Source: Syntrophales bacterium (GTDB lineage Bacteria > Desulfobacterota > Syntrophia > Syntrophales > UBA2210). From it: a stretch of 64,000 nt of DNA. A model generated the notes under the pieces. It was not told the DNA's origin. It made no database searches and worked only from the letters and a program-made list of their open reading frames with translations. Positions within the stretch are counted from its first letter, which is position 1. Each line of letters starts with the position of its first letter. Of this stretch, positions 5,386 through 24,104 are shown piece by piece. The stretch spans positions 480,001 to 544,000 of the forward strand of contig CAXXKT010000003.1 of NCBI GenBank assembly GCA_963662405.2, in the 5' to 3' direction. The position numbers and the translations under genes are program-made.

Positions 5386-6459
5386 ATGAAAGATCGACAG
5401 CATCCCACCACCTCTTCCGTATCGGATCCTTTTATTGCCGGTGATTTGGAATCCACATTTGACGAGCAGTTCTTTATTCTCAATTATGGAACGAGGCTCC
5501 TCACCGCCTGCACGGACAGAGAAATCCTGATTGATATCGCCTTGGAAACCCTGGCTGATTTTTCACGCGGAAAGCGGGTTGCCATCATGACCCTCGACAG
5601 TAATGAGGAACGGCTGGAGATCGATGGCATATTTGTGGAAAACAGGTCCGTTCGTTCGAACACGTCATTCCCCGTCGGCGGGACGGTTCTGGAAAAAACG
5701 ATGCTTCAAAAATCTGTTGCCGCCTCTCCGCTCACAATAGTCAGCGAAGTTCCCTTACCGGCAGAAAACAGAGGGAGCGATGAAGGTCAATGTTTATGTT
5801 TACCGCTGATCGGGGCTTCATTTCGTATCGTCGGGCTGGCCACAATCGAAATCCATGAAGCACATCAGCTCACCTTCCTTGAGATGCAACAACTCAGGAT
5901 CCTCAGTACGGTACTGGCCATTTCCCTCGATAATGCAAGGCTGTTCGACAGGGTCATTCACGACAGTCTGACGGACCTCTACACACGGAGATTCTATGAG
6001 ATACGGCTGGAGGAAGAGCTCCAGAAATTGAAACGAGATCCCGGCTGTCTGTCCGTAATTCTTTTTGATATTGACAAGTTCAAGGCGGTCAACGATTCAT
6101 TCGGTCATCTGATGGGGGACAAAGTCCTTCGACAGTTCGCAGCGATCATGCAGGATAACGCTCGCAGAGGTTCCACCCTGGTAAGCAGGTACGGTGGCGA
6201 AGAGTTCATTGCCCTCATCCCCGATGCCCGTCTGGACGAAGCGCTCAATATGGCGCATAGGATAAAAGACCTCTGTTCAAACCATTCATTTGGAGACGAC
6301 GCGCAAAAGATACCGGTAACCGTGAGCGGCGGCGTGGCTTTTACCGATCACACGGAATCACTTTCCCCGGGAGATCTTTTCCAGCGAGCCGATACGGCAC
6401 TGTATGAGGCCAAACGTGGTGGGCGCAATTGCATCGTTGCCTGGAATGATCCAGGATGA
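5386..6459 (+). CDS. GAF-sensor diguanylate cyclase
   Basis: N-terminal GAF-like region, then DSLTDLYTRR, DIDKFKAVNDSFGHLMGD, RYGGEEF, ADTALYEAKRGGRN. Confidence 0.9.
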   Translation: MKDRQHPTTSSVSDPFIAGDLESTFDEQFFILNYGTRLLTACTDREILIDIALETLADFSRGKRVAIMTLDSNEERLEIDGIFVENRSVRSNTSFPVGGTVLEKTMLQKSVAASPLTIVSEVPLPAENRGSDEGQCLCLPLIGASFRIVGLATIEIHEAHQLTFLEMQQLRILSTVLAISLDNARLFDRVIHDSLTDLYTRRFYEIRLEEELQKLKRDPGCLSVILFDIDKFKAVNDSFGHLMGDKVLRQFAAIMQDNARRGSTLVSRYGGEEFIALIPDARLDEALNMAHRIKDLCSNHSFGDDAQKIPVTVSGGVAFTDHTESLSPGDLFQRADTALYEAKRGGRNCIVAWNDPG

Positions 6460-6812
6460 TCGGATTTGTTGATTAATCCGAGGGTCATCCAGGAAGAGAA
6501 TGGGAAGCACAACCATTGTCCGCAAAAAAATAATCAGTCCCCGTTTCTTCTTTTCTTTTCGTCCCCTTTCCTTTTCGAGGTCGATCCTTTTGTCTATCCG
6601 AAAGACAAAGGTGACATCGGATCATCAGCGGCATATGAAGCCCCAGCCGCCATTCGAACCATCCCTGAGCATCTGGGATGGTGGATTGCGCGAGGACGAT
6701 CACCTCGAAAATTCATGCTCCTTTGTTCGCTTACACGGGGAAAACTACATTCTACACCATACATAAAGGATCAGAATTTATAACTGATTAATTCTTCTGT
6801 TCTAAAATGTTC

Positions 6813-6841
6813 TTGACTTTAAAATTTCAGCTTCCTATATT
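6813..6841 (+). promoter_or_regulatory. Putative sigma-70 promoter of the large secreted protein
   Basis: TTGACT-N17-TATATT in an AT-rich tract about 120 nt upstream of the ATG at 6962. Confidence 0.55.
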
Positions 6842-6961
6842 TAAATGGGTATATGTTCCGATACCAAAAACGCAAGTCCCTGTTAACCCCCTCGGGAATT
6901 TCCCGTTCGTAAGGGCGTGGAGATTCACTCTGTATCCGTCTTTAGCAGAAAGGTTGGAGCC

Positions 6962-9900
6962 ATGAACTTCGCCAGCAGAACCATTCGTTGTTTCATATTC
7001 TTTGTGGTTTTTTGTGCGTGTGGGGTGTGCTTCGCGGAAGAGGCGCTCCCCTATTCCTATTACCTCCCTTACTTCAGATCGGATTCGAGTTATGCCACGG
7101 CACTGGCACTCAGAAATACGGCGGAAGGAGAGGGAGCACACGTATCATCGGTGGTGTATGGCCGGGACGGAACCCCCCTGGTCACCGATGAGCGCGATAT
7201 CCCGTCCCGTGGCCAGACATCCTTTCTCATCGGTGGAGCTCTCGATTATGAGGGGGGGTGGATCGCGGTCTCTTCCGATCAGCCGCTCACGGGCTTGTGT
7301 TTTGTGGCAAGTCGGGGTGAGGACACGCATATGTACGATATCACCCTTATAGATGAACTTTCCACGGAGGTTATCGTTCCACATATCGCACAGAGCGACA
7401 ACTGGGACTCCACGGTTCTTGTCTGCAACCCCCATGATTCCCCAACCGATATCACCCTCACCTTGGTTAACCAGGAAGGGAACGTAATTGAATCCGTCAC
7501 CTACCACAACATCCCTGCAATGGGGAGCAGGCGCTATGAAATAGCGGTACTCGGCCAGGGATCGGGAAGCATTGAGATTTCAGCAGACAATGCTGTTGCG
7601 GCATTTGCACTCTACGACAATATCAAACTTCCGGAGAGATACTCCATCGCGGGGATCAGTGCGGTCGATTCGCGAAACCAGGAGGATTATACCTACTACA
7701 TTCCCTATTTTATTTCCGGGCCGGATTTGATCTCCGGAATCGGGTATGTGACAGGGGTGGCATTGAGAAACGGGAGCGCTGAGGACAGCGCGAACGTCTC
7801 CGTCGTGGTGCGGAATGAAGACGGCACCGTGTGCGCAAGCGAAGCCAGGAGTATTCCCCCTCGGGGTCAGACTTCTTTCCTCGTGGGAACCGAGTTAAAT
7901 CAGGATGGCGGGTGGATAGAGGTTTCGTCCGATCAGCCCCTGACGGGGCTCTGTTTCGTGGCAAGCGCCACGCCTGATACACACATGTTCGATATAACTT
8001 TGATACGGGATCTCTACAAGTTTCTGTCCGTGCCCCATGTGGCCCAAGGCGCCGCCTGGGATTCCAAGGTTCTCATCTGCAACCCTTCCGACCAGCAGAT
8101 CGATGTCACGCTCACACTCGTCGATACGGAAGGGAATGTGATTGAATCCACCACGTACCAGATCTCTGCGAGGGGGAGCAGGCAGTTTGAGACAGCGGCA
8201 CTCGGTCAGGGATCGGGGAGCATTGAGATCTCGGCAAGCAGTGGAGTCGCGGCATTTGCGCTCTACGACAATATCAAGCTGCGGGGGAAATACTCCATCG
8301 CGGGGATAAGCGCCCTCATGCCCCCCGTCACCGCAAATGCCCAGGCCTTTGCGAATGAAAAGGTTGCCGAGGGGACGCCCCTCCTCGATTCGGGTGATTA
8401 CAGCGCCGCGAAGGCGAAATTCGCCGAGGCACTGGATGCCGATCCTGACAACCCGGGGGCCAACGCTGGCTATTCCCTTTCCAGTATGGGTGAAAACGAG
8501 GAGACCTATGAAAACATGTGGACGGGCGCCATCGGCTCGATAGAGGGAAATGATCTCACATCGGGACAGATGTTTATGGAGCAGATATACGAATTATTAG
8601 GGGGATTGCCTTTTATACAATTCAGCTCGGAGAGCACGGAACATCGCCCCCTGTCTCTGGTGCTGCCGCAGCCCCAGGGAGCCAATGAGATAGACATTGA
8701 CCTGGATGTCCCCAATTCGCTCAAGGAAATAGTCCTGAGAATTACCCATGGCGTTCCTGTCTATGACAGCAGTTATTTCGGGGCCATGGCAGCCTTCAAG
8801 GATGAATTCAGGACGTACGTCTCCATGGCGCGGCTGATCCTTCCCCTGATCCGCAAGGTCGAGGCGGTCCCCGGTTTCACGCTCGAGTTGCCGGCCTCTA
8901 TCTACAAGGAAATCTTCGGCTTTGATATGGACGGGGACGGTATCGATGATCTCAACACCCCGGCGGACTCGGTCATTATCGACCAGGGAGATTTTTATAT
9001 TATGGATGCCATGCTCAGCATGGTGATCGGTCTGTCGCAATTCTTCGAGGCATACGATTTTACGGGATCTTCATTCGAGGTGGCAGGCGATACGAATGCG
9101 GACGGCTACATAGACCCGGATGAATATCTGCCACCGGAACCATACTACACCCTGCTGGAGGGTGGCGCAGAACGAATGGCGGAAGCCAGGGTATTTCTGA
9201 ATACGGCATTTGCCAAGCTCGAACGCGGCATCGATATTACACTGGCGGAACCAGCGGACGATCACGAGCTCCTCCCGGTGAATGCGGATGCCGATTTGAG
9301 GGCCTTTCTGAACTCTCTCAAAGACAGCGCCGATTATATGGACCTGTCTGATCTGAAGGCACTCATGTCAGGGCCCTATCTTTTTGATTTTTCAAAAGGT
9401 CCCTTTTCCCTTGCGGGTCAATCCATCTCCTTGAACTTTGCGGCCTTTTTTGATTCGCCGTTGGATTTACGCGATTATCTCCCCTCCATACGGGTGAGCG
9501 ACCAGAGCATGCACTATCGCGGTGATGATACCCTTGGGGGGATGATACCCGGCGGCGATCTCGACGATGTGCTCAATTACGCGCTCGGCATAGCGACCCT
9601 CACATCCATTCCCATCATCACCTCCCTTTCCTCAACAGAGGTCGCGTTGGGAGGCACGCTGGATATATACGGGGAAGGATTCGGCGAGCTTCAGGGCGAC
9701 AGTACGGTGACCATCGGCAACAGGGCCGTGCCTACGGCCGATATCCTCCTGTGGTCGGAAGACCACGTACAGATACGGATAGCTCCGGACACCGTTCCGG
9801 GGAGGCTGCGTATCGAGGTGGATGATATGCTCACGAACTCGGTCCGGATCAGCATCGAGGGCATCATCGCAGACCATTTTGATGAGGTTCTGAGCGCGGA

Positions 9901-10570
9901 GATGGCAGGCGATCCCCCTACCACCATCGACTCAGGACTCTATGTCTATGATATATACGATGCACCGGCTGTCTCTTGGAGCCCCACTGCCTCTCATTGG
10001 CTCATTTCGGCTGACTATCCGGGATATATGCTTCAAACATCCGACATCTGGTATCTAAACCCCGACTTTAGTTGGTGGGATTCTCCCGACCCTGAGGTGG
10101 ATTATTTCCAGGGGAGCAACCTTGTCATGCAGGGCCAGACATTCTCTGACTTCACGTTTACGGCGGGCTTTGCAATAAAATATCAGGATGAAACATGGAC
10201 GCTTAGGGGCTCTGACAACGACGGCATCGGGATCGTCTTCCGCTATCAGGACGAAGACAATTACTACCGTTTGATGAGCGTCTTCGAAGAAGGCCCGTTC
10301 ACGCGTCTCGAAAAATTCGTGGGAGGCGAGATGACCGTGCTGGCCCTGAGCACCGATCCTGCGGACGTGTACGTGGCCGACGAATACGGCGTCGTTCCTG
10401 ATGATATCAATGTCTTCACGGTCGAGGTTTCGGGAACCAATATCAAGGCATACATCAACGACAGACTGGTCTTTGATGTGAATGACGGGACGTTCTCTTC
10501 AGGGAGGGTGGGCATTGCCACCTACGCCATGTGCTGGACATGGCTGGATTATATCACCGTGGAGCACTAA
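6962..10570 (+). CDS. Large secreted/surface protein: signal peptide, two ~205-aa tandem beta-rich repeats, TPR-like helix pair, DxDxDG Ca-binding loops, IPT/TIG-like domain, C-terminal ConA/thrombospondin-C-like domain
   Basis: Signal peptide ending CFA|EE; repeats YYLPYF..YSIAGISA twice; DMDGDGIDD and DTNADGYID; PIITSLS..GGTLDIYGEGFG..WSEDHV; DNDGIGIVFRYQDEDNYY..GRVGI. Confidence 0.75.
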   Translation: MNFASRTIRCFIFFVVFCACGVCFAEEALPYSYYLPYFRSDSSYATALALRNTAEGEGAHVSSVVYGRDGTPLVTDERDIPSRGQTSFLIGGALDYEGGWIAVSSDQPLTGLCFVASRGEDTHMYDITLIDELSTEVIVPHIAQSDNWDSTVLVCNPHDSPTDITLTLVNQEGNVIESVTYHNIPAMGSRRYEIAVLGQGSGSIEISADNAVAAFALYDNIKLPERYSIAGISAVDSRNQEDYTYYIPYFISGPDLISGIGYVTGVALRNGSAEDSANVSVVVRNEDGTVCASEARSIPPRGQTSFLVGTELNQDGGWIEVSSDQPLTGLCFVASATPDTHMFDITLIRDLYKFLSVPHVAQGAAWDSKVLICNPSDQQIDVTLTLVDTEGNVIESTTYQISARGSRQFETAALGQGSGSIEISASSGVAAFALYDNIKLRGKYSIAGISALMPPVTANAQAFANEKVAEGTPLLDSGDYSAAKAKFAEALDADPDNPGANAGYSLSSMGENEETYENMWTGAIGSIEGNDLTSGQMFMEQIYELLGGLPFIQFSSESTEHRPLSLVLPQPQGANEIDIDLDVPNSLKEIVLRITHGVPVYDSSYFGAMAAFKDEFRTYVSMARLILPLIRKVEAVPGFTLELPASIYKEIFGFDMDGDGIDDLNTPADSVIIDQGDFYIMDAMLSMVIGLSQFFEAYDFTGSSFEVAGDTNADGYIDPDEYLPPEPYYTLLEGGAERMAEARVFLNTAFAKLERGIDITLAEPADDHELLPVNADADLRAFLNSLKDSADYMDLSDLKALMSGPYLFDFSKGPFSLAGQSISLNFAAFFDSPLDLRDYLPSIRVSDQSMHYRGDDTLGGMIPGGDLDDVLNYALGIATLTSIPIITSLSSTEVALGGTLDIYGEGFGELQGDSTVTIGNRAVPTADILLWSEDHVQIRIAPDTVPGRLRIEVDDMLTNSVRISIEGIIADHFDEVLSAEMAGDPPTTIDSGLYVYDIYDAPAVSWSPTASHWLISADYPGYMLQTSDIWYLNPDFSWWDSPDPEVDYFQGSNLVMQGQTFSDFTFTAGFAIKYQDETWTLRGSDNDGIGIVFRYQDEDNYYRLMSVFEEGPFTRLEKFVGGEMTVLALSTDPADVYVADEYGVVPDDINVFTVEVSGTNIKAYINDRLVFDVNDGTFSSGRVGIATYAMCWTWLDYITVEH
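7052..8314 (+). repeat. Intragenic tandem duplication (about 7052-7663 and 7688-8314)
   Basis: Shared peptides RGQTSFL, GGWI.VSSDQPLTGLCFVAS, LGQGSGSIEISA, AAFALYDNIKL, YSIAGISA; similarity also visible in DNA. Confidence 0.9.
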
Positions 10571-10591
10571 TGTGAAATCAGGCCTGTAGCG

Positions 10592-10629
10592 GGGGCGGGC
10601 GCATCGCTTCGTAGATCGGTGCCCGCCCC
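10592..10629. terminator. GC-rich hairpin between convergent genes (terminator or REP-like palindrome)
   Basis: GGGGCGGGC...GCCCGCCCC arms, preceded by GTAG; no U-tract. Confidence 0.4.
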
Positions 10630-10717
10630 TGAAACGCTTCCTGTGCCCTGTCGGTGTCGCAGGGGTCGAAAGGCTTGGTGACGTCTTGAGGCGGGTGTCT
10701 TTTGCTCCGTCTTGTTT

Positions 10718-10760
10718 TCAATCAACAGCCTCATTATCTCCGTCACGGAACGAAACCCGA
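10718..10760 (-). pseudogene. Orphan 3'-end remnant of a GNAT gene paralogous to 13133-13645
   Basis: 36/43 nt identical to 13146-13188; encodes GFRSVTEIMRLLIE versus GFRSTPEMMRLFID. Confidence 0.7.
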
Positions 10761-10806
10761 CATTCAATTATGCCACGTCCAGAGGGTTGGCAGCGGGGGA
10801 GCACGT

Positions 10807-10826
10807 CAGGAAATAGGTGTGTCCCC
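10807..10826 (-). repeat. Dispersed motif, copy 1 (GGGGACAC-ACCTATTTCCTG)
   Basis: Identical to the 14403-14425 copy apart from a 3-nt deletion. Confidence 0.7.
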
Positions 10827-10849
10827 CGATCTTCAGCTATCACGTCCGC

Positions 10850-11278
10850 TCACTTCTTGGACGAAGAGACAATAAGGTGTGTCGTTGTTACACGCACGAG
10901 CACATTATTATTGTCATCTCTCACGACGGTTTCAACGACTTTCATTGTTCGTCCGGAATGCACAACCTGAGCTTCCGCCGTTGCGGTACCGGTATCTGTG
11001 TTGCTCACCAGATTTGCGCTCAGTTGTACCGTGAACGGAAAGGGCTCATCTTCTTTCCTGCAGGCTGCCGTGGCGGTTATGTCGGCGAGCGAAACCAAGG
11101 CTCCTGCGGCAAATTTCCTCGTAAATTGACTTGTATTAGGGCAAAAGGGCATTTTCATGACCACCCGGTTTTCTTCTATCTCAACCGGTGTAATGCCGAA
11201 GGCAATAAAGATGTCCCCACCTTTCTCTTCGAAGGGTCTCCGAAATTCAGCAACAGCTTTCTCGTCAAGTTTTGGCAT
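10850..11278 (-). CDS. PaaI-family hotdog-fold thioesterase
   Basis: GALVSLADITATAAC, TVQLSANLV, AEAQVVHSGRTMKVVE. Confidence 0.8.
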   Translation of the reverse strand: MPKLDEKAVAEFRRPFEEKGGDIFIAFGITPVEIEENRVVMKMPFCPNTSQFTRKFAAGALVSLADITATAACRKEDEPFPFTVQLSANLVSNTDTGTATAEAQVVHSGRTMKVVETVVRDDNNNVLVRVTTTHLIVSSSKK

Positions 11279-12542
11279 GGTGAGTTTCCTTTTCCAGATT
11301 GCTCAAAAAGTGCTCGAGCAGCGATTCGCGTACGTGATCCATCACCACGATCTTCCACCAGCGCGGCCTGCCGTCGTGCGTGTCGGGGACGAGGAGGTAC
11401 TTCTCCGCGAGGGCCGGTGTGATATGGGTGCTGCGAATGGCGACCTGATTCATTGCCGGGTGGCGGTAATACTCGACAGCGAGGTCGCTGAGGCGCGTGC
11501 AGAGGCGGTCGGTCCGCTCGCGCAGGTGGCGGCACCGCGCGATGAGCCCCTCCGAGCCCGCGTCGCGGAGCAGCATCCAGACGGCAACGGCGTTGGCCCC
11601 CGATCGACTGCCGCAGATCGTATAGTCCTTGCCGAGCACGTAGCTCGCCTCGTCGGTGCAGACCTCGTCGATAAGACCCTTGCGGCAGAGAAAAATGCCC
11701 GTGCCGTACGGCGCCTTGAGCATCTTATGGGCGTCCATGGTGATGGACGCGACGTGGGGACTGCGGAAATCGAGGGAATGGTCGTCGACCGCAAAGGGAT
11801 AGATGAATCCTCCGTAGGCGCCGTCCACATGGAGACGGAAGGCGAGGGCTCTCTCCCGGAGGGCCGTGACGAGCGGCCCGGGGTCGTCGATGGAGCTGAA
11901 CATGGTTGTGCCCATGTTGACCACGCCGATGACACAGCGGACACCGGCGGTCACGGCGGCATCGAGCGTCGCGGCGATGGCGGCGGGGTGCATCTGCCTG
12001 GTGGTATCATCGACGGGGACGGGGCACGGACGCAGGTCGAGCAGGTTGGCGGCCTTCCACACCGAGTAATGCGTGTCGGCGGAGAAGACGATGCCGATCT
12101 CTCCGGCGCGGGCCTGGTGCGTGCGGCGGAAGAGACTGCGCAGGATCCAGCACGCCTCCAGATTGGATTCGGTGCCGCCCGGTGCGATGTAGCCGTCATA
12201 ACCGTCCCTGGGCGCGCGCATGATCTCTTCGGCGCAGAGGGCGATCGCCTCCCTTTCCAGTTCCTGCGTTCCCGGGAACCCGCATTCCGACACCTCGACA
12301 GTGTGGCAGCCGATGTGATTCGGGTTCTCGATAATGGCGCGTAGATACGGTTCGTCGTCGAGTACCGGCGAGGACCACGGGATGTGGGTGAGGACAGAGC
12401 AGCTGTCGGCGTAGTAATCCTCGGCATCGAGATGCGTGCCGGGGAAACCGAGCACGGCATCGGTATGGTAGTTGATGTTGCGGTCAATGGCCTGCGCGAA
12501 ACGCCGTTTGATCTCGTCACGTGAGTATTGTTCCCAGTGCAT
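11265..12542 (-). CDS. Group II PLP-dependent amino-acid decarboxylase (histidine/tyrosine/aspartate decarboxylase-like)
   Basis: GGTESNLEA, HYSVWKAA, GTT..SIDD, LHVDGAYGG, DAHKML (PLP lysine), GSRSGANA. Confidence 0.88.
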   Translation of the reverse strand: MHWEQYSRDEIKRRFAQAIDRNINYHTDAVLGFPGTHLDAEDYYADSCSVLTHIPWSSPVLDDEPYLRAIIENPNHIGCHTVEVSECGFPGTQELEREAIALCAEEIMRAPRDGYDGYIAPGGTESNLEACWILRSLFRRTHQARAGEIGIVFSADTHYSVWKAANLLDLRPCPVPVDDTTRQMHPAAIAATLDAAVTAGVRCVIGVVNMGTTMFSSIDDPGPLVTALRERALAFRLHVDGAYGGFIYPFAVDDHSLDFRSPHVASITMDAHKMLKAPYGTGIFLCRKGLIDEVCTDEASYVLGKDYTICGSRSGANAVAVWMLLRDAGSEGLIARCRHLRERTDRLCTRLSDLAVEYYRHPAMNQVAIRSTHITPALAEKYLLVPDTHDGRPRWWKIVVMDHVRESLLEHFLSNLEKETHHAKT

Positions 12543-12657
12543 GATTTCCGCTCTTTCTTCGATCAATTCCTAAGAAACGCACTTCCCGCCTTTATCGGTG
12601 ACGAACCCTTAATCGGCACATCTTTGAGGTTCTTTATGGTTTTTACCGGCGGGCGTG

Positions 12658-13083
12658 TTATACGCCGTACTTCATGAGAATCTCAATATGACCCGTGTGC
12701 TTGTCAATCTGTTCTTGTATGATTCTGAATCCGCGCTTTCTGTAAAAATCAATACTCTTCGGATTTTCTTTATATACCGTGAGTTCCAGACTGTTTCTCA
12801 AGGATTTTGCCTTATCCATTAATCTACGGCCGATACCTCTGCCGTGAAACTCCGGGGAGACGAACATCGCCGCCAGCGTGTCATTGTGGAGAGAGAAAAA
12901 GCCCTTGATAATTTCGTTTTCTTCAAACACATATGTGTTGGAAGCGGGAATATAGGTATCCCGCATTACATCCATTCTGGATTCCCAGAATTCCGGAGAA
13001 ACAAAGCTATGCGCGTCTATCGATGCTTTCACCCAGATATCCAGGACATCATTGATTTCTTCCGTTTTCAATTTTCGTATCAT
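12658..13083 (-). CDS. GNAT N-acetyltransferase (YiaC/YjaB-like)
   Basis: IWVKASIDAHSFV, MFVSPEFHGRGIG, LTVYKEN..FYRKRGF. Confidence 0.88.
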   Translation of the reverse strand: MIRKLKTEEINDVLDIWVKASIDAHSFVSPEFWESRMDVMRDTYIPASNTYVFEENEIIKGFFSLHNDTLAAMFVSPEFHGRGIGRRLMDKAKSLRNSLELTVYKENPKSIDFYRKRGFRIIQEQIDKHTGHIEILMKYGV

Positions 13084-13132
13084 ATTGATCACTACCGGCT
13101 CATGCCACGATATGCTTCGTAGATTTCAGTTA

Positions 13133-13645
13133 TTACGTGCTTTTGTCGATAAACAGTCTCATCATCTCCGGCGTGGAACGAAACCCGATCTTCTCGTAGA
13201 TCGGTTTACCCGCCGCGCTCGCGGTGAGAATCATCCTGTTGACACCGTGGACACGGCAGTGCTGTATCGCGGCATCGATGATGCGCTGCGCGCATTTCCT
13301 GTTGCGATGCGTCTTCTCCGTGTACATGCCGTGCAGGTACGCGACTTTTGGTGACAGATCGGAAAGATTCGGAACGAAACTGACAAAGGTCACCCCTCCG
13401 CTCGCGACGATCTTCCCGTCATCCTCGATCACCCAGGCCGTGCAGATTCCGCTCCTTAATTCCGTTTCGAGCTTCTGGGTATAGGCCTTCTCGATATCAC
13501 CCGCTAGTTGGGGGTCAAGGTGCTCACCCTTCTGCTCACATATTTCTTCGAACATCAATCTGTAATGTTCGGCCATAGCAGGGATGTCTTCAATCGATGC
13601 CTCACGAAGAGGCATTTTAGATTTTTTCAATCTATCAGTTGCCAT
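13133..13645 (-). CDS. GNAT N-acetyltransferase
   Basis: AYLHGMYTEKTHRNRK, LTASAAGKPIYEKIGF. Confidence 0.85.
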   Translation of the reverse strand: MATDRLKKSKMPLREASIEDIPAMAEHYRLMFEEICEQKGEHLDPQLAGDIEKAYTQKLETELRSGICTAWVIEDDGKIVASGGVTFVSFVPNLSDLSPKVAYLHGMYTEKTHRNRKCAQRIIDAAIQHCRVHGVNRMILTASAAGKPIYEKIGFRSTPEMMRLFIDKST

Positions 13646-13705
13646 GAGTAGTCCTTATTACAGTCAGCGCTGCATTCAGCTTCTTGTCAGCGAGAGAGAA
13701 TAGGG

Positions 13706-13728
13706 CAAGAAATAGGTATGCTGTCCCC
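13706..13728 (-). repeat. Dispersed motif, copy 2 (GGGGACAGCATACCTATTTCTTG)
   Basis: 21/23 identical to 14403-14425; 15 nt past the hicB stop. Confidence 0.75.
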
Positions 13729-13743
13729 GAATTTAAGTCGTTT

Positions 13744-14073
13744 TTACTGATTGAGCTTCAAACCGGCAAGCCGATTCAGACTGATTCCCGACTCGGCGGC
13801 CTGGATCGCAAGGCTTCGATGAACATCCGGGGGGACCCGGACCATAAACTTCCCGCTGTATTTCCTGCAGGCAATCGGTTCCGGGATATCTTCACCGTGC
13901 TCGCGCATATCCTGTACGGTATCCGTAACCACCTTCCGGATTCCCCGCAGGGCGGCCTCCGGAGTCCGGGCCAGCCAGCTCAAACTCGGGAATTCGGTAC
14001 ACAGCCCCACATACTCGTTGTCCTCTTCAGACCATGTTACCCGGTAGGTGTATTTATCGTTTTTCAAGGTCAT
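13744..14073 (-). CDS. hicB: HicB-family antitoxin
   Basis: YTYRVTWSEEDNEYVGLCTEFPSLSWLA, C-terminal RHH YSGKFMVRVPPDVHRSLAIQAAESGISLN. Confidence 0.9.
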   Translation of the reverse strand: MTLKNDKYTYRVTWSEEDNEYVGLCTEFPSLSWLARTPEAALRGIRKVVTDTVQDMREHGEDIPEPIACRKYSGKFMVRVPPDVHRSLAIQAAESGISLNRLAGLKLNQ

Positions 14074-14317
14074 GATATACCTCCAGTCTCTCAACGGCCA
14101 GCAGCACCTGTTTCACCTGGTATGCCTTGGCCTTCCCCTTATAATTCTGGATATTGATCCTCGGGTCCCCGTGCCACGGGGTTTTATATATCCGGTGGCT
14201 TCCACTGCTTTGGCGAGGTTTACCGAAGAAATGATCACAGACCCTGCATAAATCAGCAAATCGGACATTTCCTGGATTCCTCCCCATTTGTGCAAGGATG
14301 TCATCCGTCTTTATCAT
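14054..14317 (-). CDS. hicA: HicA-family toxin
   Basis: NPGNVRFADL, GSH catalytic motif, PRINIQ..GKAKAYQVKQVL; overlaps the hicB start. Confidence 0.9.
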   Translation of the reverse strand: MIKTDDILAQMGRNPGNVRFADLCRVCDHFFGKPRQSSGSHRIYKTPWHGDPRINIQNYKGKAKAYQVKQVLLAVERLEVYHDLEKR

Positions 14318-14319
14318 GG

Positions 14320-14352
14320 GACATTGGTATCACTATTGATACCAATGTCAAG
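14320..14352 (-). promoter_or_regulatory. hicAB operator/promoter
   Basis: Perfect 13-bp inverted repeat GACATTGGTATCA-N4-TGATACCAATGTC overlapping a minus-strand TTGACA, directly upstream of the hicA ATG. Confidence 0.75.
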
Positions 14353-14402
14353 GGTTATTTGTTGAGGAGGGATTTGGGGGGAGATGGGGGAAAATAGTCA
14401 TT

Positions 14403-14425
14403 CAGGAAATAGGTATGGTGTCCCC
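14403..14425 (-). repeat. Dispersed motif, copy 3 (GGGGACACCATACCTATTTCCTG)
   Basis: Same orientation as copies 1 and 2. Confidence 0.75.
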
Positions 14426-14463
14426 AAATGAGACCAGCTACCGAACGATATATTTCTGCCGGG

Positions 14464-14523
14464 CACTAACGGATTTTTCACAAGCGCCGGTAGTTTGGCG
14501 CCTCGTGCAAAAATGGGCTATAC
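14464..14523 (-). mobile_element. attC-like integron cassette recombination site
   Basis: Minus strand: GTATAGC-N5-TTTGCAC-GAGGCGCC-loop-GGCGCTT-GTGAAA-N5-GTTAGTG; imperfect palindrome with bulged bases; R'' overlaps the gene's stop codon. Confidence 0.65.
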
Positions 14524-15003
14524 GTTCCTTTTCATCAACCCATACGGAAAGATACAAGGCGTTTTAGCTTTGTATTGAAAGTATTCGGAACCAAATACTG
14601 ATTCCAAATATATTTCTTCTTTTTTTACCAATTTACATAATACGAGGTACATGAATATCGGTGTTGTAAACACAATCCAACTGTTTATGAAAAGAACGAT
14701 GCCAGGGACAATAAAAACCACCCATGATGCATAGAGCGGATGGCGGCAACATCTGAAAATTCCATCAGTGACAAGATTATCGGCATTGTATGCACGTGTC
14801 ACTGTTTTTACCGAAATTATAAAGAAGGGGACTCCAACGACGAGCAAAGTAACCCCCAGAAAGGACTTAACCCAGGAGGGGATGGAGTCTATCTGAAGAA
14901 CCGGCTGAAAATAGCGGTTTGTTATCAGCATAATCGCTCCGTAGCCGATTGATAAGGAGGCAAAAATGGGCCCTATGCCCCACCTGCTCATTTTTTCTTT
15001 CAT
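14518..15003 (-). CDS. Isoprenylcysteine carboxyl methyltransferase (ICMT/PEMT) family membrane protein
   Basis: LVTDGIFRCCRHPLYA, KKEEIYLESVFGSEYFQYK; AT-rich relative to the flanks; start uncertain. Confidence 0.85.
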   Translation of the reverse strand: MKEKMSRWGIGPIFASLSIGYGAIMLITNRYFQPVLQIDSIPSWVKSFLGVTLLVVGVPFFIISVKTVTRAYNADNLVTDGIFRCCRHPLYASWVVFIVPGIVLFINSWIVFTTPIFMYLVLCKLVKKEEIYLESVFGSEYFQYKAKTPCIFPYGLMKRNV

Positions 15004-15206
15004 GGATATTCTCTGATTTTCGTATGACATGAAATAGACAGTTTCCTGCATAGAAACAAAACACAGTTACTCGGACAGCGTAAGTCGTCCTCTATCAATC
15101 TTATGGCTCTCGAATGGCGGTGCTGTTGTCTCAACAGAAATATCCCCCGGAAAGCAGTAAAAACCATACACCCTGAAAATTCTTTGTCAAGGGTTTTATA
15201 TGATTA

Positions 15207-15240
15207 AAGAAACACCCCGGTAACAGGGTGTTTCTGTTTT
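15207..15240. terminator. Intrinsic terminator-like hairpin after the ECF ATPase gene
   Basis: AGAAACACCC..GGGTGTTTCT stem with flanking A/T tracts. Confidence 0.55.
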
Positions 15241-15241
15241 C

Positions 15242-15982
15242 TTACGAGAATTCTTCTTCGTGGCGGTGGGAGTATTCGCCGCCCACGTGAACGTGTGTGT
15301 GGGTGTGGGGGACGATGTGGTCGGCCTTCCGCAGGCGCCCGTCCGCGAAGGCGTAGAAGGTGTCCGCGATCCGTGACATGAAGTCCAGTTCGTGCGAGGT
15401 GACGACGAGGGTCAGGTCGAGCCCTGACAGGATCTCCGTGAGACGGTCCTTCGTTTCCTGATCGAGCCCCGCCGTGGGTTCGTCGAGGATCAGGACCTCC
15501 GGGTCCATGGCCATGACGCTCGCCAGGGCCACCAGCTTTTTCTCGCCGTGGGACAGCTTGTGGCTGATTCGGTCCTCGAAGTCGAGAATCCCCAGGGTGT
15601 CGAGGGTCCGGTGGACGATCTCCCCGGCCTCGTCCGCCGTCCTGCCCAGGTTGAGGGGTCCGAAGGCCACGTCCTCCCTGACGGTGGGGCAGAAGAGCTG
15701 GTCCTCGGCGTTCTGGAAGAGGAACCCGATCCGCCGGCGGACGTCGAAAAAGTCTTCTTCCGTTCGGACCGTGTGGCCGAAGATGGTGATGCCGCCGGAC
15801 TGCGGCCGGGCGAGTCCCATAATCAGGTGGAAGAGGGTGGTCTTCCCCGAGCCGTTGGGGCCGATGATACCGATCCGCTCACCCCGTTTCACCGCGAGGT
15901 CCACCCCGTTCAGGACGGCGGGCCTTCCCGGATAGGCGTAGGTGGCACCGGTTATATCGATGATTGTTTCATCCGTCGGCAT
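15242..15982 (-). CDS. cbiO: Ni/Co ECF transporter ATPase (NikO/CbiO) with His-rich tail
   Basis: GPNGSGKT, FQNAEDQLFCPTV, LSHGEKK, LDEPT. Confidence 0.9.
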   Translation of the reverse strand: MPTDETIIDITGATYAYPGRPAVLNGVDLAVKRGERIGIIGPNGSGKTTLFHLIMGLARPQSGGITIFGHTVRTEEDFFDVRRRIGFLFQNAEDQLFCPTVREDVAFGPLNLGRTADEAGEIVHRTLDTLGILDFEDRISHKLSHGEKKLVALASVMAMDPEVLILDEPTAGLDQETKDRLTEILSGLDLTLVVTSHELDFMSRIADTFYAFADGRLRKADHIVPHTHTHVHVGGEYSHRHEEEFS

Positions 15983-16715
15983 ATACGATCCCCGTGAGGA
16001 CCAGACATAGCACAATCAGTGAGAGAATATCCAGCCGGGAAAGACGGTCCTTCTCGATACGGGGGAACCGGCCGTTGAACCCCCGGCAGAGCATGGCCGA
16101 CCTGACCCGCTCGGCCCGCTCGAAGCTGTTCACCAGGAGCATCCCCACCAGGTAGGCGTAGCTCCGGTAGGTGTGGAGGGTCGAGGCGGGCCTGAAGCAG
16201 CGCACCCTCATGGCGTTTACCAGCCGGGTGTATTCGCCGGAGATGTCACCGATGTAGCGGTAGGTGAGGAAGAAGAGATAGGTGATCTCGTCGGGCACCT
16301 TGAGCGCGGTCATGGCATGGGTCATGGCGGTGATGCTGGTGGATGCCATGAAGGCGATAAGGGCGAGCATAATGGCGTTGGATCGAAGGGTCAGGGTCAC
16401 CATATAGGCGATGCCCTCCCTCGTCACGATGGCGGGTCCGATTGCCAGGACCTTCTCTCCGGGGATGCCCCAGGGGACAAGGAGCCACAGAAACACGAGA
16501 AAGAGATTGAAGAGGAGCATTCGCCGGAGAAGGTTCCGGGGGGGGATTCGCGAGATGATGACAAAGACAAGCGACAGGCCGAGCGCGTACAGAAGGGCGT
16601 TTGTATTCTCAAGGAGGGCGACCACCACGGAAAAGGCGAGGACGCCCAGGAGTCTGGTGCGCGGGTCCAATGCGTGGAGCGGCGATCTGTCCGCATAGGT
16701 CTGTTCGATGTCCAT
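15969..16715 (-). CDS. cbiQ: Ni/Co ECF transporter T component (NikQ/CbiQ)
   Basis: LHALDPR, TYRYI, AMRVRCF, SFERAERVRSAMLCRGF. Confidence 0.9.
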   Translation of the reverse strand: MDIEQTYADRSPLHALDPRTRLLGVLAFSVVVALLENTNALLYALGLSLVFVIISRIPPRNLLRRMLLFNLFLVFLWLLVPWGIPGEKVLAIGPAIVTREGIAYMVTLTLRSNAIMLALIAFMASTSITAMTHAMTALKVPDEITYLFFLTYRYIGDISGEYTRLVNAMRVRCFRPASTLHTYRSYAYLVGMLLVNSFERAERVRSAMLCRGFNGRFPRIEKDRLSRLDILSLIVLCLVLTGIVYADG

Positions 16716-16724
16716 CGGTTCTTC

Positions 16725-17315
16725 TTATTCTTTGCGGCGCGCCTTGAAGTACATGAGGAGGCCCATGATCCCCCCGATATACCCGATGCCGCCGATCACA
16801 TCGGTCAGCGAGATCCCTCTCTCATGCAACAACGCCACGTCGCGTGCCAGGGGGCCTATTTTTTTGTCCAGTTCTTCGGTGACGATGACCCTGATCCGGT
16901 CCTCATCGACGGCTACGTGGACCTTTTCGCCCTGTGGAACCACTCCGGCACTTTCTTTCTTCGCGGCATCGGTTTTGACGTTACCGTTTCCCTTGAGAGT
17001 GCATTCCGCGCGGTGCCCCATCGAGGCGGTCAGGACGATTCTGATCTCCGGGACGTTCGGTACGGGGAAGGAGAAAAGACCGTTGGCATCGGTCTTTCCC
17101 TCCAGCAGTTTCGTGCCGCCTTCCCCGAATACCTCCACCAGCGAATCCTGGGTCTTTTTCCCATCGGCGAAGTAGCCTTCGGCATACACCGTCCCACTCT
17201 CCTGATAGGCGAAGACCATGACCTTATGGGCCTGTGCGGGGGCGCTCAGGATGACCGTAACCAGGAAAAACAGGAAGAACCCCAGAAAGGGTTTTGAAAA
17301 GCGTTTCATCCTCAT
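16725..17315 (-). CDS. NikL/CbiL-like accessory membrane protein
   Basis: Signal peptide ending AQA|HKVMVFAY, GKTDANGLFSF, MGHRAE, C-terminal TM DVIGGIGYI; operon position. Confidence 0.7.
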   Translation of the reverse strand: MRMKRFSKPFLGFFLFFLVTVILSAPAQAHKVMVFAYQESGTVYAEGYFADGKKTQDSLVEVFGEGGTKLLEGKTDANGLFSFPVPNVPEIRIVLTASMGHRAECTLKGNGNVKTDAAKKESAGVVPQGEKVHVAVDEDRIRVIVTEELDKKIGPLARDVALLHERGISLTDVIGGIGYIGGIMGLLMYFKARRKE

Positions 17316-17920: not shown

Positions 17921-18676
17921 CTACTCCATCGTGTGGAACTTCACCCAGAGGACGGCGCCGAGCTCGATGTCCTTCCCCTTGATCTTCTCGCCGGAGGTGT
18001 TCAGGGCGGCAAAACCCCACCAGCCGGCCGTGGGGGCGGCATAGGTGAAGACGCCGTTGGCATCGGTCATGACGACCTGGGTGATGAACGCGTCATCGGG
18101 GGCCGTAAATCTTTTGTCCTGATTGTAGTATTCCACTTCCACTTCGCAGTTCGGGACGGGTTTTCCGTCGAGCAGCACCACACCCTGAAAGACATTTCCC
18201 GCATACAGCCCGAACGGCCTGGAGAGCGGAACGATCTCCGTCTTGAGACCCACAGGGGAATCCCATCCGTCTTCGAGACCGAAGGCGCTGAGGATCACCC
18301 GGGTATAGTGGACGATGTAGCAGTCTTCGGCCGGTTCCCAGTAGGGTTGCGGTTCCATGTGGAAACTGTATACCCCCGGTTTTTTGAAGGTATACGCCGC
18401 CTCCCATGCCTGGTGCCCGAGGGATTGGATCTCTTTGAGGCTCCCGGATAGATCGGTTTTTCCTTCACCGGTGATCACGCCGAACGTGGCCGGTTTGACG
18501 AGGGGCATCCCCTCCATCTCGAAGGGATGGGCGAACATCAGCCTGACGGTAATCTGCCGGGACTCACCCTGAGAAATGATATCGTCGGACGGGATGACCA
18601 TGCCGAAGTGGGCATATGCCGCCGGGACGGAGAACAGAAACAAAACCAATGCGGTAAGTAATATTTTCCTAATCAT
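17921..18676 (-). CDS. DUF4198 / NikK-like periplasmic metal-uptake protein
   Basis: Signal peptide ending [50 protein letters not shown]. Confidence 0.8.
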
Positions 18677-21286: not shown

Positions 21287-22006
21287 TTAGTCGAAGGCCA
21301 TCTCCGTCTTCCATTCCTTCCAGACGTTCCCGACCAGGTCTGGACCGGGTTTGAGTGTCTTCTTCCCCGGCCGCCAGCCGGAGGGGGTGGCCTCTGTCCC
21401 CTTCGACGCCCTGACGAGCTGGAAGGCCTGAACCTGACGGAGCGATTCATTGACGTTCCGCCCGACGGGGGGTGTCAGGACCTCGTAGCCCTGGATCACG
21501 CCGTCCGGGTCGATGATAAACCGCCCACGTGTCTCGACCCCCGCGTCCTCGTCGTAGATGCCGAAGATCGTGCCGACCTTGCCTCCGGCATCGGACAGCA
21601 TGGGGAAGGGGACGCCCCCATTTACCATCTTCGACAGTTCGTTATCGTTCCACATCTTGTGGACGAATACGCTGTCGATACTCATGGAGAGGATGTCCAC
21701 GCCCAGCTTCTGGAATTCGGGGTATTTTTCAGCAACTGCTGAAATTTCGGTTGCTCAGACGAATGTGAAATCACCCGGGTAGAAGCAGAGGAGGACCCAC
21801 TTGCCGAGGTGTTCCGAGAGCTGCACGTTGACGAATTTTCCCTTGTGATACGCTGGAGCCACAAAATCCGGTGCCTTCTTTCCGACCTGTATCATACTCC
21901 TCACCTCCTTCTGGACGGTTGGTTGTTCGAATTTCTCTTCGCTGACGGGTTCTCCCACCGGTCCACCCGTCGGTCGGGCGCATCCCGCCTTGATTTCCTC
22001 CGGCAT
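21287..22006 (-). CDS. prxU: Selenocysteine-containing peroxiredoxin (AhpC/Prx1 type); in-frame UGA at 21755-21757 read as Sec
   Basis: FYPGDFTFV-[TGA][11 protein letters not shown] continues in frame into the 21287-21700 ORF; TGA sits at the peroxidatic Cys position; hairpin downstream; tRNA-Sec in the window. Confidence 0.93.
21727..21744 (-). promoter_or_regulatory. Bacterial SECIS-like hairpin
   Basis: UUUCAGC-AGUU-GCUGAAA starting 11 nt 3' of the UGA, with G in the loop. Confidence 0.75.
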
Positions 22007-22214
22007 AGGCACGAACCTCCTTTCACCGTATTGTGTTGGTCAGTAACCGTTTTTTTGGACCGGGGCGGATACCGTCCCGCGGCCAACTTATAACCATAAT
22101 CTATATTTGCCGGAAAATTATAGCGTATACTGTCAGGCAAAACAAGGAGAGATGCAACCGCTCTGAGCGAATGACGGTGTTTTAGAAAGGGATATGAATG
22201 GTCCGGCCGATGCG

Positions 22215-24104
22215 TCAGGCTTTCTTCTTTGCCGGTGTGGTCTCCTCTTCCGAGAAGGGAATGGTCAGTTCGTACGTTCCACCCTTGACCACCGCGTGCA
22301 GGGGGAATGGTGCCTTTTCGAAGACCTTCAACATCGGTTTGTTCTCGATGAGGATGTCCGCTGTGAAACCTTCCACGCCGCGCTTTCGGGCGATGCTGAT
22401 CAGCAGATTCAAGAGAAACGATCCGATCCCCAGGCCCTGAAATTTTTCATCGATAACGAAGGCCACGTCGGCATAGGGGCGGTCCTTCGAGAGGACGTAC
22501 CGCCCTTCGGCGATGATCCGCAGCCGTCCCGCATCTTGAGCGAGACCGACGATCGACATGATATGTCCGTAGTCGACATTCACGTACTCCTGCATCTTCA
22601 TGTGAGGCATGGTCTTGATGGGACTGAAATAGCGATAGTAGACCGTCTTGTCGGAAAACCGGTAAAACAGTTTCCGCATATCCTCTTCATCGGAGGGCTT
22701 GATCGCGCGGAACCGGACGGAGACAGTTCCCGGAAAGACATGGGTATGCAGGATGTCGGCCGGGTACAGGTGTCCGTATTCAGTGAGGTATATCTGGTCG
22801 GAGTACAGAAGGTTTGCCTTTTTGGCCATCTTGACCAGTTCTCCCCGGTCGTCCGGATGGGCGACATCGATCAGCGCGAGCGCCCGTTCACGGAGACTCC
22901 TTCCCCTCATCGAGGCGACGCCGAACTCCGTTACGATCAGGTCGAGGGATTCGCGGTTCGTAAACTGGTGAGGGAGGTTCTCCACCGAGAGCAGGATATT
23001 CGATTTTCCCTCGAGGTTTCGGCTCGGGAGGGCGAAGATCGCCCGTCCTCCCTGTGAGAAGTTGGCCCCGGCAAATGCCTCATGCGCCTCGCCGGAACCG
23101 GGGCTGACGTTTCCTTTCCCGACGTGAAGGGTGATGTTCCCGGTCAGGTCGACCTTCCGGGCGGGAAGGACGGTAATGAACCGGTCATTCTGGCTCATGC
23201 TGTCCGGGTCGGTGGTCACGTCGATCCCCTGAAATTCGACGAGGGGATTATCGTTCAGCCAGGTCATCAGTTCCGGCGTCCCCATGGTATAGGAGGCCAC
23301 GCTCTTGTATCGGAAGTGGGCCTTGTACCGGTTCGTGACGGCACCGGATTTGATGAGATCCATGAGGGCGTCCGTCATCATGAGGGAGTGGACACCCAGG
23401 TTCTTCTTGCGCGCGAGGTGCCTGGCGAGCGCCTCGAAAAGGGGACCGATAAAGAATGCGACGCAACTCCCGTCTTCGATAACGGAGGCCACATTTTCCG
23501 CTACCCCGTCGAAGACCTTGTCGATGGGCCACCGGGGGAAATAGATGGGGGGGTCGGTGGAGTAGACAAGATGGGTGAAATCATTGACATGGACAACGGT
23601 GTCCCCGTGGGTGCGAGGGGTATGCTCATTGATCTCTCCGACGATGAGCGATGCGCGTTCCATGGCGTACCGGGCCACATCCACCGATGCGCCGAAGCTG
23701 GCGAATCCCGCCTCATCGGGAGGGGATATTTGGACAAAGGCCGCGTCGATGTCGGTACTCCCCGATTTAAACAGCGCGGGTATCCGGGAGGTCCTGCTGG
23801 GTATCAGGTCAACCCTCCCGGCGGTGATGGCCTCGTCGGCAACCCATCGGGAGAAGAATGTCCTGAGGCGGTATTTCTTGGCGTATCGTTCATCGATGGG
23901 GAGGGCATCTCCCAGACTCAGAAGCTGTATCAGCTCGAGATCCCGCAGGTTGCTGGCATTCGAAGCCGTCAGGTGCTTGATAAGGGTGCGCGGCTCGGCC
24001 GCCCCGGTCCCCACGAAGATATTCATCCCCGGCCGGATGTTATCGAGAATCTCCTCCGGTGAGGCGATCTTGTCTTTCCACTGGGATGAGATTGTATATG
24101 ACAT
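22215..24104 (-). CDS. Acetyl-CoA hydrolase/transferase fused to C-terminal GNAT domain
   Basis: IFVGTGAAEP, VDLIP, QISPPDEAGFASFGASVD, IVTEFGVASMRG..ERALALIDVAHPDDR; GNAT FRAIKPSDE..FQGLGIG. Confidence 0.88.
   Translation of the reverse strand: MSYTISSQWKDKIASPEEILDNIRPGMNIFVGTGAAEPRTLIKHLTASNASNLRDLELIQLLSLGDALPIDERYAKKYRLRTFFSRWVADEAITAGRVDLIPSRTSRIPALFKSGSTDIDAAFVQISPPDEAGFASFGASVDVARYAMERASLIVGEINEHTPRTHGDTVVHVNDFTHLVYSTDPPIYFPRWPIDKVFDGVAENVASVIEDGSCVAFFIGPLFEALARHLARKKNLGVHSLMMTDALMDLIKSGAVTNRYKAHFRYKSVASYTMGTPELMTWLNDNPLVEFQGIDVTTDPDSMSQNDRFITVLPARKVDLTGNITLHVGKGNVSPGSGEAHEAFAGANFSQGGRAIFALPSRNLEGKSNILLSVENLPHQFTNRESLDLIVTEFGVASMRGRSLRERALALIDVAHPDDRGELVKMAKKANLLYSDQIYLTEYGHLYPADILHTHVFPGTVSVRFRAIKPSDEEDMRKLFYRFSDKTVYYRYFSPIKTMPHMKMQEYVNVDYGHIMSIVGLAQDAGRLRIIAEGRYVLSKDRPYADVAFVIDEKFQGLGIGSFLLNLLISIARKRGVEGFTADILIENKPMLKVFEKAPFPLHAVVKGGTYELTIPFSEEETTPAKKKA

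Follow-up and report, generated by a model that had tools for sequence, protein, structure and literature searches.

A direct repeat between accessory genes of a Syntrophales bacterium matches the terminal inverted repeats of TIRtrons

TIRYTs have been described as RAYT-like genes flanked by long inverted repeats, and the elements that they form with these repeats as TIRtrons (Di Nocera, De Gregorio & Rocco 2013, BMC Genomics 14:522, PMC3733652). In the sections of that paper used here, the terminal inverted repeats (TIRs) have the motif GGGGWSAS in common, and TIR families are found as single, dimeric or grouped copies. The sections used of a later classification (Quentin et al. 2018, BMC Genomics 19:475, PMC6006769) assign the majority of TIRYTs to TnpA-Y1 subclass 2.1 and give the consensus again as GGGG[AT][CG]A[CG]; subclass 2.1 is presented there as TnpA-REP-like proteins without repetitive extragenic palindromes (REPs) nearby and with a C-terminal extension resembling a helix-turn-helix (HTH) domain (Bac_DnaA_C, HTH_23 or HTH_28). 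Here we analyze a short direct repeat, present in three copies (A, B and C) between accessory genes, in a 64,000-nt stretch of the genome of a Syntrophales bacterium (assembly GCA_963662405.2, contig CAXXKT010000003.1, positions 480,001 to 544,000; hereafter the window). The three copies are very probably gene-less copies of the 26-nt TIR of a TIRtron whose sole gene is a RAYT-like HUH/Y1 TIRYT, likely deposited or copied by such an enzyme and now inert relics. The motif likely marks old insertions, not a new gene-capture system.

Copy A (GGGGACAGCATACCTATTTCTTG, 13706-13728) and copy B (GGGGACACCATACCTATTTCCTG, 14403-14425) lie on the minus strand and are identical at 21 of 23 nt. The 23-nt pattern matched twice in the window but never in 100 dinucleotide-preserving shuffles, far beyond chance. 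Copy C (10807-10826, minus strand) has the same orientation and a 3-nt deletion relative to A and B. The heads of the copies, GGGGACAG in A and GGGGACAC in B and C, both fit GGGGWSAS. Each copy is directly 3' of a minus-strand gene, C after the gene for a PaaI-like thioesterase, A after that for HicB and B after the ICMT-like gene, and the hicA-hicB pair, together with its promoter/operator region, is bracketed by A and B. The copies, their orientation and their placement agree with the original prediction, a note made from the sequence alone that had proposed a gene-cassette array punctuated by the motif. Its statement that the motif is not palindromic also held: among DNA folds of the three window copies and two cognate element ends, none was clearly better than those of shuffles (z -1.9 to +1.1). 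The 5' extension is kept in copies A (AAATTC) and C (AGATCG) and not in B, and A and C have about 20 further nt in common past the TIR. A weak look-alike that had been reported at 6527-6541 (GAAACGGGGACTGATTATTTTT, minus strand) was not confirmed; it does not have the GGGGWSAS head and the middle of the unit is missing, and it may be a chance match or a badly decayed copy. An Rfam scan of 6000-17000 gave no match at E ≤ 1.

Window-type copies are few in the 3.8-Mb genome to which the window belongs. There are five, three of them within 3.6 kb and in one orientation; four sites have at most two mismatches to the 20-nt core, and two of these are in the window. The remaining window-type copies adjoin a gene for an oxidoreductase resembling pyruvate:ferredoxin oxidoreductase (PFOR), a short-chain dehydrogenase gene and unnamed open reading frames (ORFs).

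The pattern had 20 matches in six of 41 related genomes, compared with none for a reversed-pattern control. In one genome of the same family but another genus (G020), two inverted copies, 720 nt apart, surround an intact 223-aa gene (MARIARVVAPGFPHHITQRGNRRQ...; locus L023, with one TIR at ~1501-1523 on the plus strand, the inverted TIR at ~2223-2245 and the ORF at 1557-2228). The sequence upstream of this gene is ...GGGGACACCATACCTATTTCTTGAC... and the inverse downstream is ...AAATAGGTATGGTGTCCCC; the left end of the element reads AATATGGGGACACCATACCTATTTCTTGACTTGC... and the right end ...GATAAATAGGTATGGTGTCCCCATATT. Set against the G020 TIR, the 20-nt core shows no difference in copy B and a single changed base in copy A. 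A genome of the window's own genus (G003, locus L022) has an intact 223-aa homologue, 77% identical to the G020 gene, with a matching TIR seen upstream only. We identify the window copies as TIRs because their sequence equals the inverted ends of the intact G020 gene and also stands upstream of the G003 gene. In intact elements the hexamer CTTGAC, which resembles a -35 box, comes straight after the TIR, about 35 nt before the TIRYT start.

The proteins encoded between these ends are Y1 transposases by family assignment. Scores against Pfam Y1_Tnp (PF01797) were 47 to 54.5 bits for the TIRYT proteins examined (cut-off 23), the G020 protein having 47 bits, and in an alignment with E. coli TnpA-REP (PDB 4ER8) the motif HVH pairs with HMH, and YVEMNP, which contains the tyrosine, with YIYINP. 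TIRYT homologues (E ≤ 1e-10) were found in 35 of the 41 related genomes, often in several copies, with 10 matches in G003 and 11 in G020, several of them full-length. The intact genes with motif ends in G020 (both ends) and G003 (upstream) bear out the earlier suggestion that a trans-acting mobile-DNA enzyme of the HUH/RAYT (Y1) type is encoded elsewhere. The proposal that the system was undescribed did not survive, as TIRYTs, TIRtrons and dispersed GGGGWSAS TIR families appear in the sections used of the 2013 (PMC3733652) and 2018 (PMC6006769) papers, the first describing and the second classifying them. In a full-text literature search, which did not extend to the figures and supplements of Di Nocera 2013, the exact 19-26-nt sequence was found in no paper.

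We determined the extent of the repeat unit from position frequencies over 94 distinct contexts, drawn from 80 loci fetched from a collection with one genome per species (genome_contigs). The unit is 26 nt long, AAATCS-GGGGACACCATACC-TATTTC, and its edges are sharp: conservation begins 6 nt before GGGG and stops after TATTTC. The motif that had been put at about 23 nt is real, and the unit is longer. At least 122 stretches in the collection have the motif, in metagenome-assembled genomes (MAGs) labelled Desulfobacterota, Planctomycetota, Magnetococcales, Actinomycetes, Dehalococcoidia, Omnitrophota, Nitrospiraceae and others; the Planctomycetota among the matches listed include Scalindua, Brocadiaceae, Pirellulales and Phycisphaerae. 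That the 26-nt unit is found almost unchanged in MAGs from many phyla indicates that one element has spread widely by horizontal transfer.

Most of the fetched loci have the repeat without the gene. A TIRYT homologue lies within 1.2 kb in 19 of the 80; the other 61 have none and consist of solo copies, tandem arrays (L110 with five copies, L089, L066) and inverted doublets (L101, L073). There were 129 ORFs adjoining the motif in the 80 loci, and a Pfam family could be assigned to 50: six Y1_Tnp, two parts of toxin-antitoxin systems, one IS66 transposase and 41 assorted proteins, among them the housekeeping enzymes pyrophosphatase, malate synthase, malic enzyme and 3-deoxy-D-arabino-heptulosonate 7-phosphate (DAHP) synthase. 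We also counted gene orientation at solo sites (loci L037-L116, minus those with a TIRYT (19) or with inverted copies, and disregarding ORFs shorter than 90 aa); with crude ORF calling and kinship uncontrolled, the gene on the TATTTC side was convergent in 25 of 31 cases, and the GGGG side was unbiased (16 vs 20). The window is one more example of the dispersed end-repeats of TIRYTs, a class that has been catalogued but is biochemically unstudied, and as such an ordinary finding. Of modest interest are the near-constancy of the unit across phyla, the local clustering in one orientation, the bias of solo copies towards the 3' ends of neighboring genes, and the fact that solo copies outlive the gene, the window's genome having the repeat and no cognate transposase.

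Copy C retains more than the repeat. After the TIR it reads CCTGACGTGCTCCCCC, compared with CTTGACTTGCTGCCCC where the G020 element has its left end (13 matches over 16 positions), and its flank has GTGGCA in the alignment columns of the ATGGCA start of the TIRYT gene. Beyond this lies a fragment that resembles the 3' end of the GNAT2 gene and is evidence that a local duplication and deletion took place beside copy C. Left-end interior sequence at copy C, followed by the piece resembling GNAT2, suggests that a whole TIRtron probably once sat there and was later truncated. The description of the copies as insertion scars fits this remnant.

A mechanism can be proposed by analogy with E. coli TnpA-REP and the TnpA of IS200/IS605. 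The Y1 enzyme would attach to the TIR in single-stranded form and carry out cleavage and rejoining there; the element would move in this way, and solo or stuttered copies of the TIR would be seeded close by. Deletion would have removed the cognate element that was once at copy C. Segmental duplication, in addition to re-copying, would account for at least part of the local cluster; duplication is suggested because A and C share the additional 20 nt or so past the TIR and because the GNAT 3' fragment lies beside C. Like such repeats elsewhere, the motif occupies spacers, here those of a mosaic accessory region, and it does not delimit integron-like cassettes.

Several observations weigh against this account. 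The presence of three of the five copies within 3.6 kb, in one orientation, is not predicted by a picture of purely random relics, and we infer local re-copying or duplication instead. Copies A to C all read towards a co-oriented downstream gene or gene fragment, which is the minority layout at solo sites elsewhere. A hicAB homologue in G020 (71% identical) has a TIR 16 nt past the hicB stop codon, compared with 15 nt in the window, and a contig from a sediment metagenome (X1; 298 nt, depth 7.55, shorter side 35 nt) joins 14423 to 13738; by either observation, the module and the TIR could travel together. The cognate TIRYT gene is absent from the window's genome. The best paralogue there is 68% identical to the G020 protein, so any action of a resident enzyme on the window copies is putative. 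In a Pfam search with residues 140-223 of two TIRYTs, covering the C-terminal extension of about 80 aa, there was no match at E ≤ 5, and the HTH reported for subclass 2.1 was not detected. To our knowledge, there is no biochemistry for any TIRYT.

The resident TIRYTs of the window's genome (G000) have their own repeats. A genome-wide list of GGGGACA with its flanks brought out a related family, TTCCGGGGACACCTTACTTA..., which forms clusters at two sites of contig C1. At C1:2080286-2080948, a 221-aa TIRYT ORF lies between inverted ends with the TIR GGGGACACCTTACTTA, identical to the window type at 14 of 16 positions. The left end reads ...TTCCGGGGACACCTTACTTAATTATTGACA... and the right end ...GATAAGTAAGGTGTCCCCGGAATTCC, where the ORF's stop codon falls within the repeat. 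The C1 protein accounts for the 54.5 bits against Y1_Tnp and scored 77.1 bits against NCBIfam NF047646 (REP_Tyr_transpos), below the cut-off of 80. A decayed copy of the C1-type gene is present at C1:~22000-22565. There are two other paralogues, one 44% identical at C3:145713-146372 with its own inverted TIR AAATAGGGACAGCGCCCATTT, and one 35% identical at C2:219969-220577 with its own inverted TIR GGGGTCAGGTCTTGCTTTTTGCCA. The heads of all resident TIR families, including GGGGTCAG, fit GGGGWSAS. The 11-mer core of the C3 type had 35 matches, 30 of them with A/T-rich flanks, and eight pairs form inverted doublets 39-66 nt apart.

The resident families also show local accumulations. The 37-kb stretch G000:C3:116966-154114, on the window's contig but outside the window, has a dense cluster of AAATAGGGACAGCGCCCATTTT near the TIRYT gene of that family; most copies there are paired as inverted doublets with about 56-66 nt between them, and the stretch carries about half of the genome's 30 C3-type TIR copies. 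Two gene-less derivatives of the C1 element, each 135 nt long (L002:5292-5426 and L002:7001-7135, within G000:C1:~2081291-2083135), have the two inverted ends and, of the gene, its final ~90 nt; as internal-deletion copies, they resemble miniature inverted-repeat transposable elements. A junkyard-like region on the same contig (L001, G000:C1:19000-29000) contains a vapBC-like PIN/RHH pair, a decayed TIRYT, a DNA-alkylation-repair gene, a gene for an outer membrane protein (OMP) beta-barrel and an IS110-family transposase; C1-type TIRs and a 128-nt repeat with a variant TIR in it are interspersed among them.

The elements traced here resemble TIRtrons, as far as the sections of the 2013 paper used here describe them, in having a RAYT-like Y1 gene between TIRs rather than hairpin REPs (G020), a GGGGWSAS head, copies away from the gene as singles, dimers and groups, and several TIRYT genes per genome, each with its own TIR. 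The window differs in having solo TIR copies only, with the cognate gene not in the genome and with three same-orientation copies clustered among accessory genes. Placed by features rather than by a tree, the proteins (~220 aa with a C-terminal extension of ~80 aa) are like subclass 2.1 in the sections used of the 2018 classification; for the HTH-like C-terminal domain of that subclass there was no Pfam match. With REP/REPIN-RAYT systems, in the parts used of the papers that describe them (Nunvar 2010; Bertels & Rainey 2011; Bertels 2017), they share the HUH/Y1 superfamily and short extragenic repeats that stand as inverted copies on either side of the gene and are scattered elsewhere as singlets or inverted doublets. 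Compared with those parts, the unit ends here have no GTAG or CGTC and form no stable hairpin, and RAYTs are single-copy whereas the gene here is multi-copy in relatives and one 19-mer is found across many phyla. The score of the C1 paralogue below the REP_Tyr_transpos cut-off is a further difference. The elements also share a Y1 HUH transposase (PF01797), and likely a single-stranded DNA chemistry, with the IS200/IS605 family. Members of that family such as IS608 and ISDra2 have sub-terminal hairpins and no terminal inverted repeats; here, inverted ends of 20-26 nt abut the gene.

Some of the observations that count against relics would fit an alternative in which modules made up of a TIR, a spacer with promoter and a cargo (hicAB; GNAT2) are excised as circles by a Y1 transposase acting in trans on two direct TIRs and re-inserted beside another TIR, building arrays. 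Y1 enzymes of the IS200/IS605 type act on two same-strand ends, hicAB is exactly between copies A and B, and the tight cluster in one orientation, the sequence shared by A and C past the TIR and the GNAT 3' fragment after C also count in its favor. The X1 joint of 14423 to 13738 is the junction expected of a circle or of a tandem hicAB-TIR-hicAB, the TIR is near the hicB stop codon in G020 as well, and in a third genome (G007) a TIR-like sequence lies upstream of hicA. However, what comes after hicB in G020 is the right-hand TIR of a TIRYT gene that has decayed to a 30-aa C-terminal remnant following this TIR, and two of four hicAB homologues in relatives are without the motif. In 80 metagenomic loci with hicB homologues (180,653 nt), the 19-nt core was found in none at up to three mismatches, and any GGGGWSAS-type repeat stood beside hicAB in two. 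No motif separates the four genes between copies C and A (thioesterase, decarboxylase, GNAT1 and GNAT2), and the neighbors of the motif are functionally mixed, both in the 80 fetched loci and at the other copies in the genome. The X1 to X4 data are from sediment metagenomes and comprise fragmentary relatives at 85% likeness, in which joints below 95% likeness often stem from other organisms or repeats. An X1 contig without copy B and the ICMT-like gene has 14360 joined to 15142, and its left edge (14360/14361) is 42 nt off the motif. In marine sediment (X2), a contig of 2161 nt has the decarboxylase gene with 86 differences in 1274 nt and a different 38-nt spacer, and rejoins the window at 12652, the GNAT1 stop codon; decarboxylase and GNAT1 being contiguous in this contig, the pair would appear to travel together in another organism. 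X2 contigs together match window positions 11286-13197, with others than this one covering GNAT1 up to 13197. Given all of this, we regard excision and re-insertion of modules as quite unlikely. The boldest proposal, that TIRYTs acting in trans on direct TIRs shuffle promoter-bearing modules (TIR-hicAB, TIR-GNAT) into arrays and that the window is three such modules in a row, appears to us quite unlikely; if true, shuffling in trans by a TIRYT would be an analogue of integron cassette capture driven by a Y1/HUH enzyme. The original prediction had named scattering of the motif, irrespective of where genes were gained or lost, as a result that would refute it; the motif was indeed found scattered in this way, and the segment edge in X1 is away from it.

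Two further explanations were considered. The motif could be a binding site, or a promoter module with a -35 box, that regulates the downstream minus-strand gene (GNAT2, hicA). The CTTGAC after the TIR of intact elements would be in keeping with this, as would the positions of A and B 63 and 88 nt upstream of co-oriented genes. We consider it very unlikely, because an identical 19-mer is found in many phyla as inverted ends of transposase genes, in tandem arrays and in inverted doublets, in 25 of 31 cases the gene downstream of a solo copy is convergent, a TTGACA promoter and a palindromic operator that belong to hicA itself lie 40-60 nt beyond the motif, and copy C is followed by a gene fragment only. 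An integron-type cassette array with degenerate attC sites would likewise have short repeats 3' of small accessory genes, and GNATs and toxin-antitoxin pairs, which are common integron cassette cargo, are neighbors here. This is extremely unlikely: a crude regular-expression scan of both strands of 10400-15400, which is not a covariance model, gave no attC-like R''/R' pair (RYYYAAC...GTTRRRY) at 47-157 nt, the motif is not palindromic, there is no rule of one repeat per cassette, and the repeat belongs to a transposase element, identity to the TIRYT TIR explaining it. The gene-cassette array and gene capture of the original prediction are not upheld by these results, and direct repeats among accessory genes should not be taken, in annotation, as a new recombination system.

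Searches for rearranged or empty forms of the region gave little. Two sequencing runs with contigs over the stretch at about 5x depth (X5 and X6) had no joint inside 10500-15300, contigs being blind to rare circles and deletions, and a third (X7) gave just two short pieces at less than 90% likeness, the organism not being in it. A DNA search of 40 relatives for shared gene order or empty sites found only hicAB-like and short intergenic pieces, species representatives being too distant for mapping boundaries of gain and loss. The flanking 1217-aa protein and ABC ATPase had no orthologous context in five genomes.

Table 1. Positions of the repeat copies, associated remnants and genes in the window
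Feature	Positions	Strand	Remarks
GNAT2 3'-end-like fragment in spacer beside copy C	10708..10765	-	58 nt at 78% to 13136-13193; 38/46 nt, E=6e-10, to 13143-13188
Putative relic of TIRtron left-end interior	10771..10809	-	alignment to G020 left end
TIR copy C	10810..10832	-	AGATCG-GGGGACAC-ACCTATTTC, unit with 3-nt internal deletion; downstream of thioesterase gene
Hotdog-fold (4HBT/PaaI-like) thioesterase gene	10850..11278	-	Pfam, NCBIfam
Pyridoxal phosphate (PLP)-dependent decarboxylase gene	11265..12566	-	GC ~0.65; Pfam, NCBIfam
GNAT acetyltransferase 1 (GNAT1)	12658..13092	-	Pfam/NCBIfam
GNAT acetyltransferase 2 (GNAT2)	13133..13645	-	Pfam/NCBIfam; no match at E<=1e-20 in 40 relatives
TIR copy A	13709..13734	-	full 26-nt unit AAATTC-GGGGACAGCATACC-TATTTC; 9 nt past hicB stop codon, 63 nt before GNAT2 start
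HicB antitoxin gene	13744..14094	-	Pfam/NCBIfam
HicA-like gene	14054..14317	-	87 aa; name from position beside HicB
TIR copy B	14406..14431	-	outer 6 nt diverged (TCATTT); downstream of ICMT-like gene, 88 nt before hicA start
ICMT/PEMT-like methyltransferase gene	14518..15051	-	Pfam, NCBIfam

The genes around the copies were largely as they had been named from the sequence (Table 1). Pfam and NCBIfam families supported the thioesterase, the decarboxylase, the two GNATs, HicB and the ICMT-like protein, and the 87-aa product called HicA had no Pfam or NCBIfam family match at E ≤ 0.1, its label coming from its position beside HicB alone. The visibly different base composition that had been reported was confirmed, with GC across the stretch from 0.41 to 0.67. 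With two TIRYT proteins as queries against the whole window, tblastn gave one weak match only (E=0.09, 18291-18560), and the remnant at copy C is the sole trace of such a gene in the window; other recombinase families were not searched for.

Two putative regulatory regions were seen beside these genes. Between the -35 box and the hicA start, at ~14324-14345, is a palindrome, TTGGTATCA-N4-TGATACCAA, probably the operator bound by HicB; relatives have similar sequence at their hicAB homologues (L007, L008, L009). About 70 nt are conserved at 15136-15211 (minus strand), upstream of the gene for the ICMT-like protein, with a near-consensus promoter, TTGACA-N17-TATGGT, on that strand. This region has 75-90% identity to intergenic DNA in several relatives (G002, G004, G005, G006, G016 and G023), in some of them in multiple copies, and is single-copy in the window's genome.

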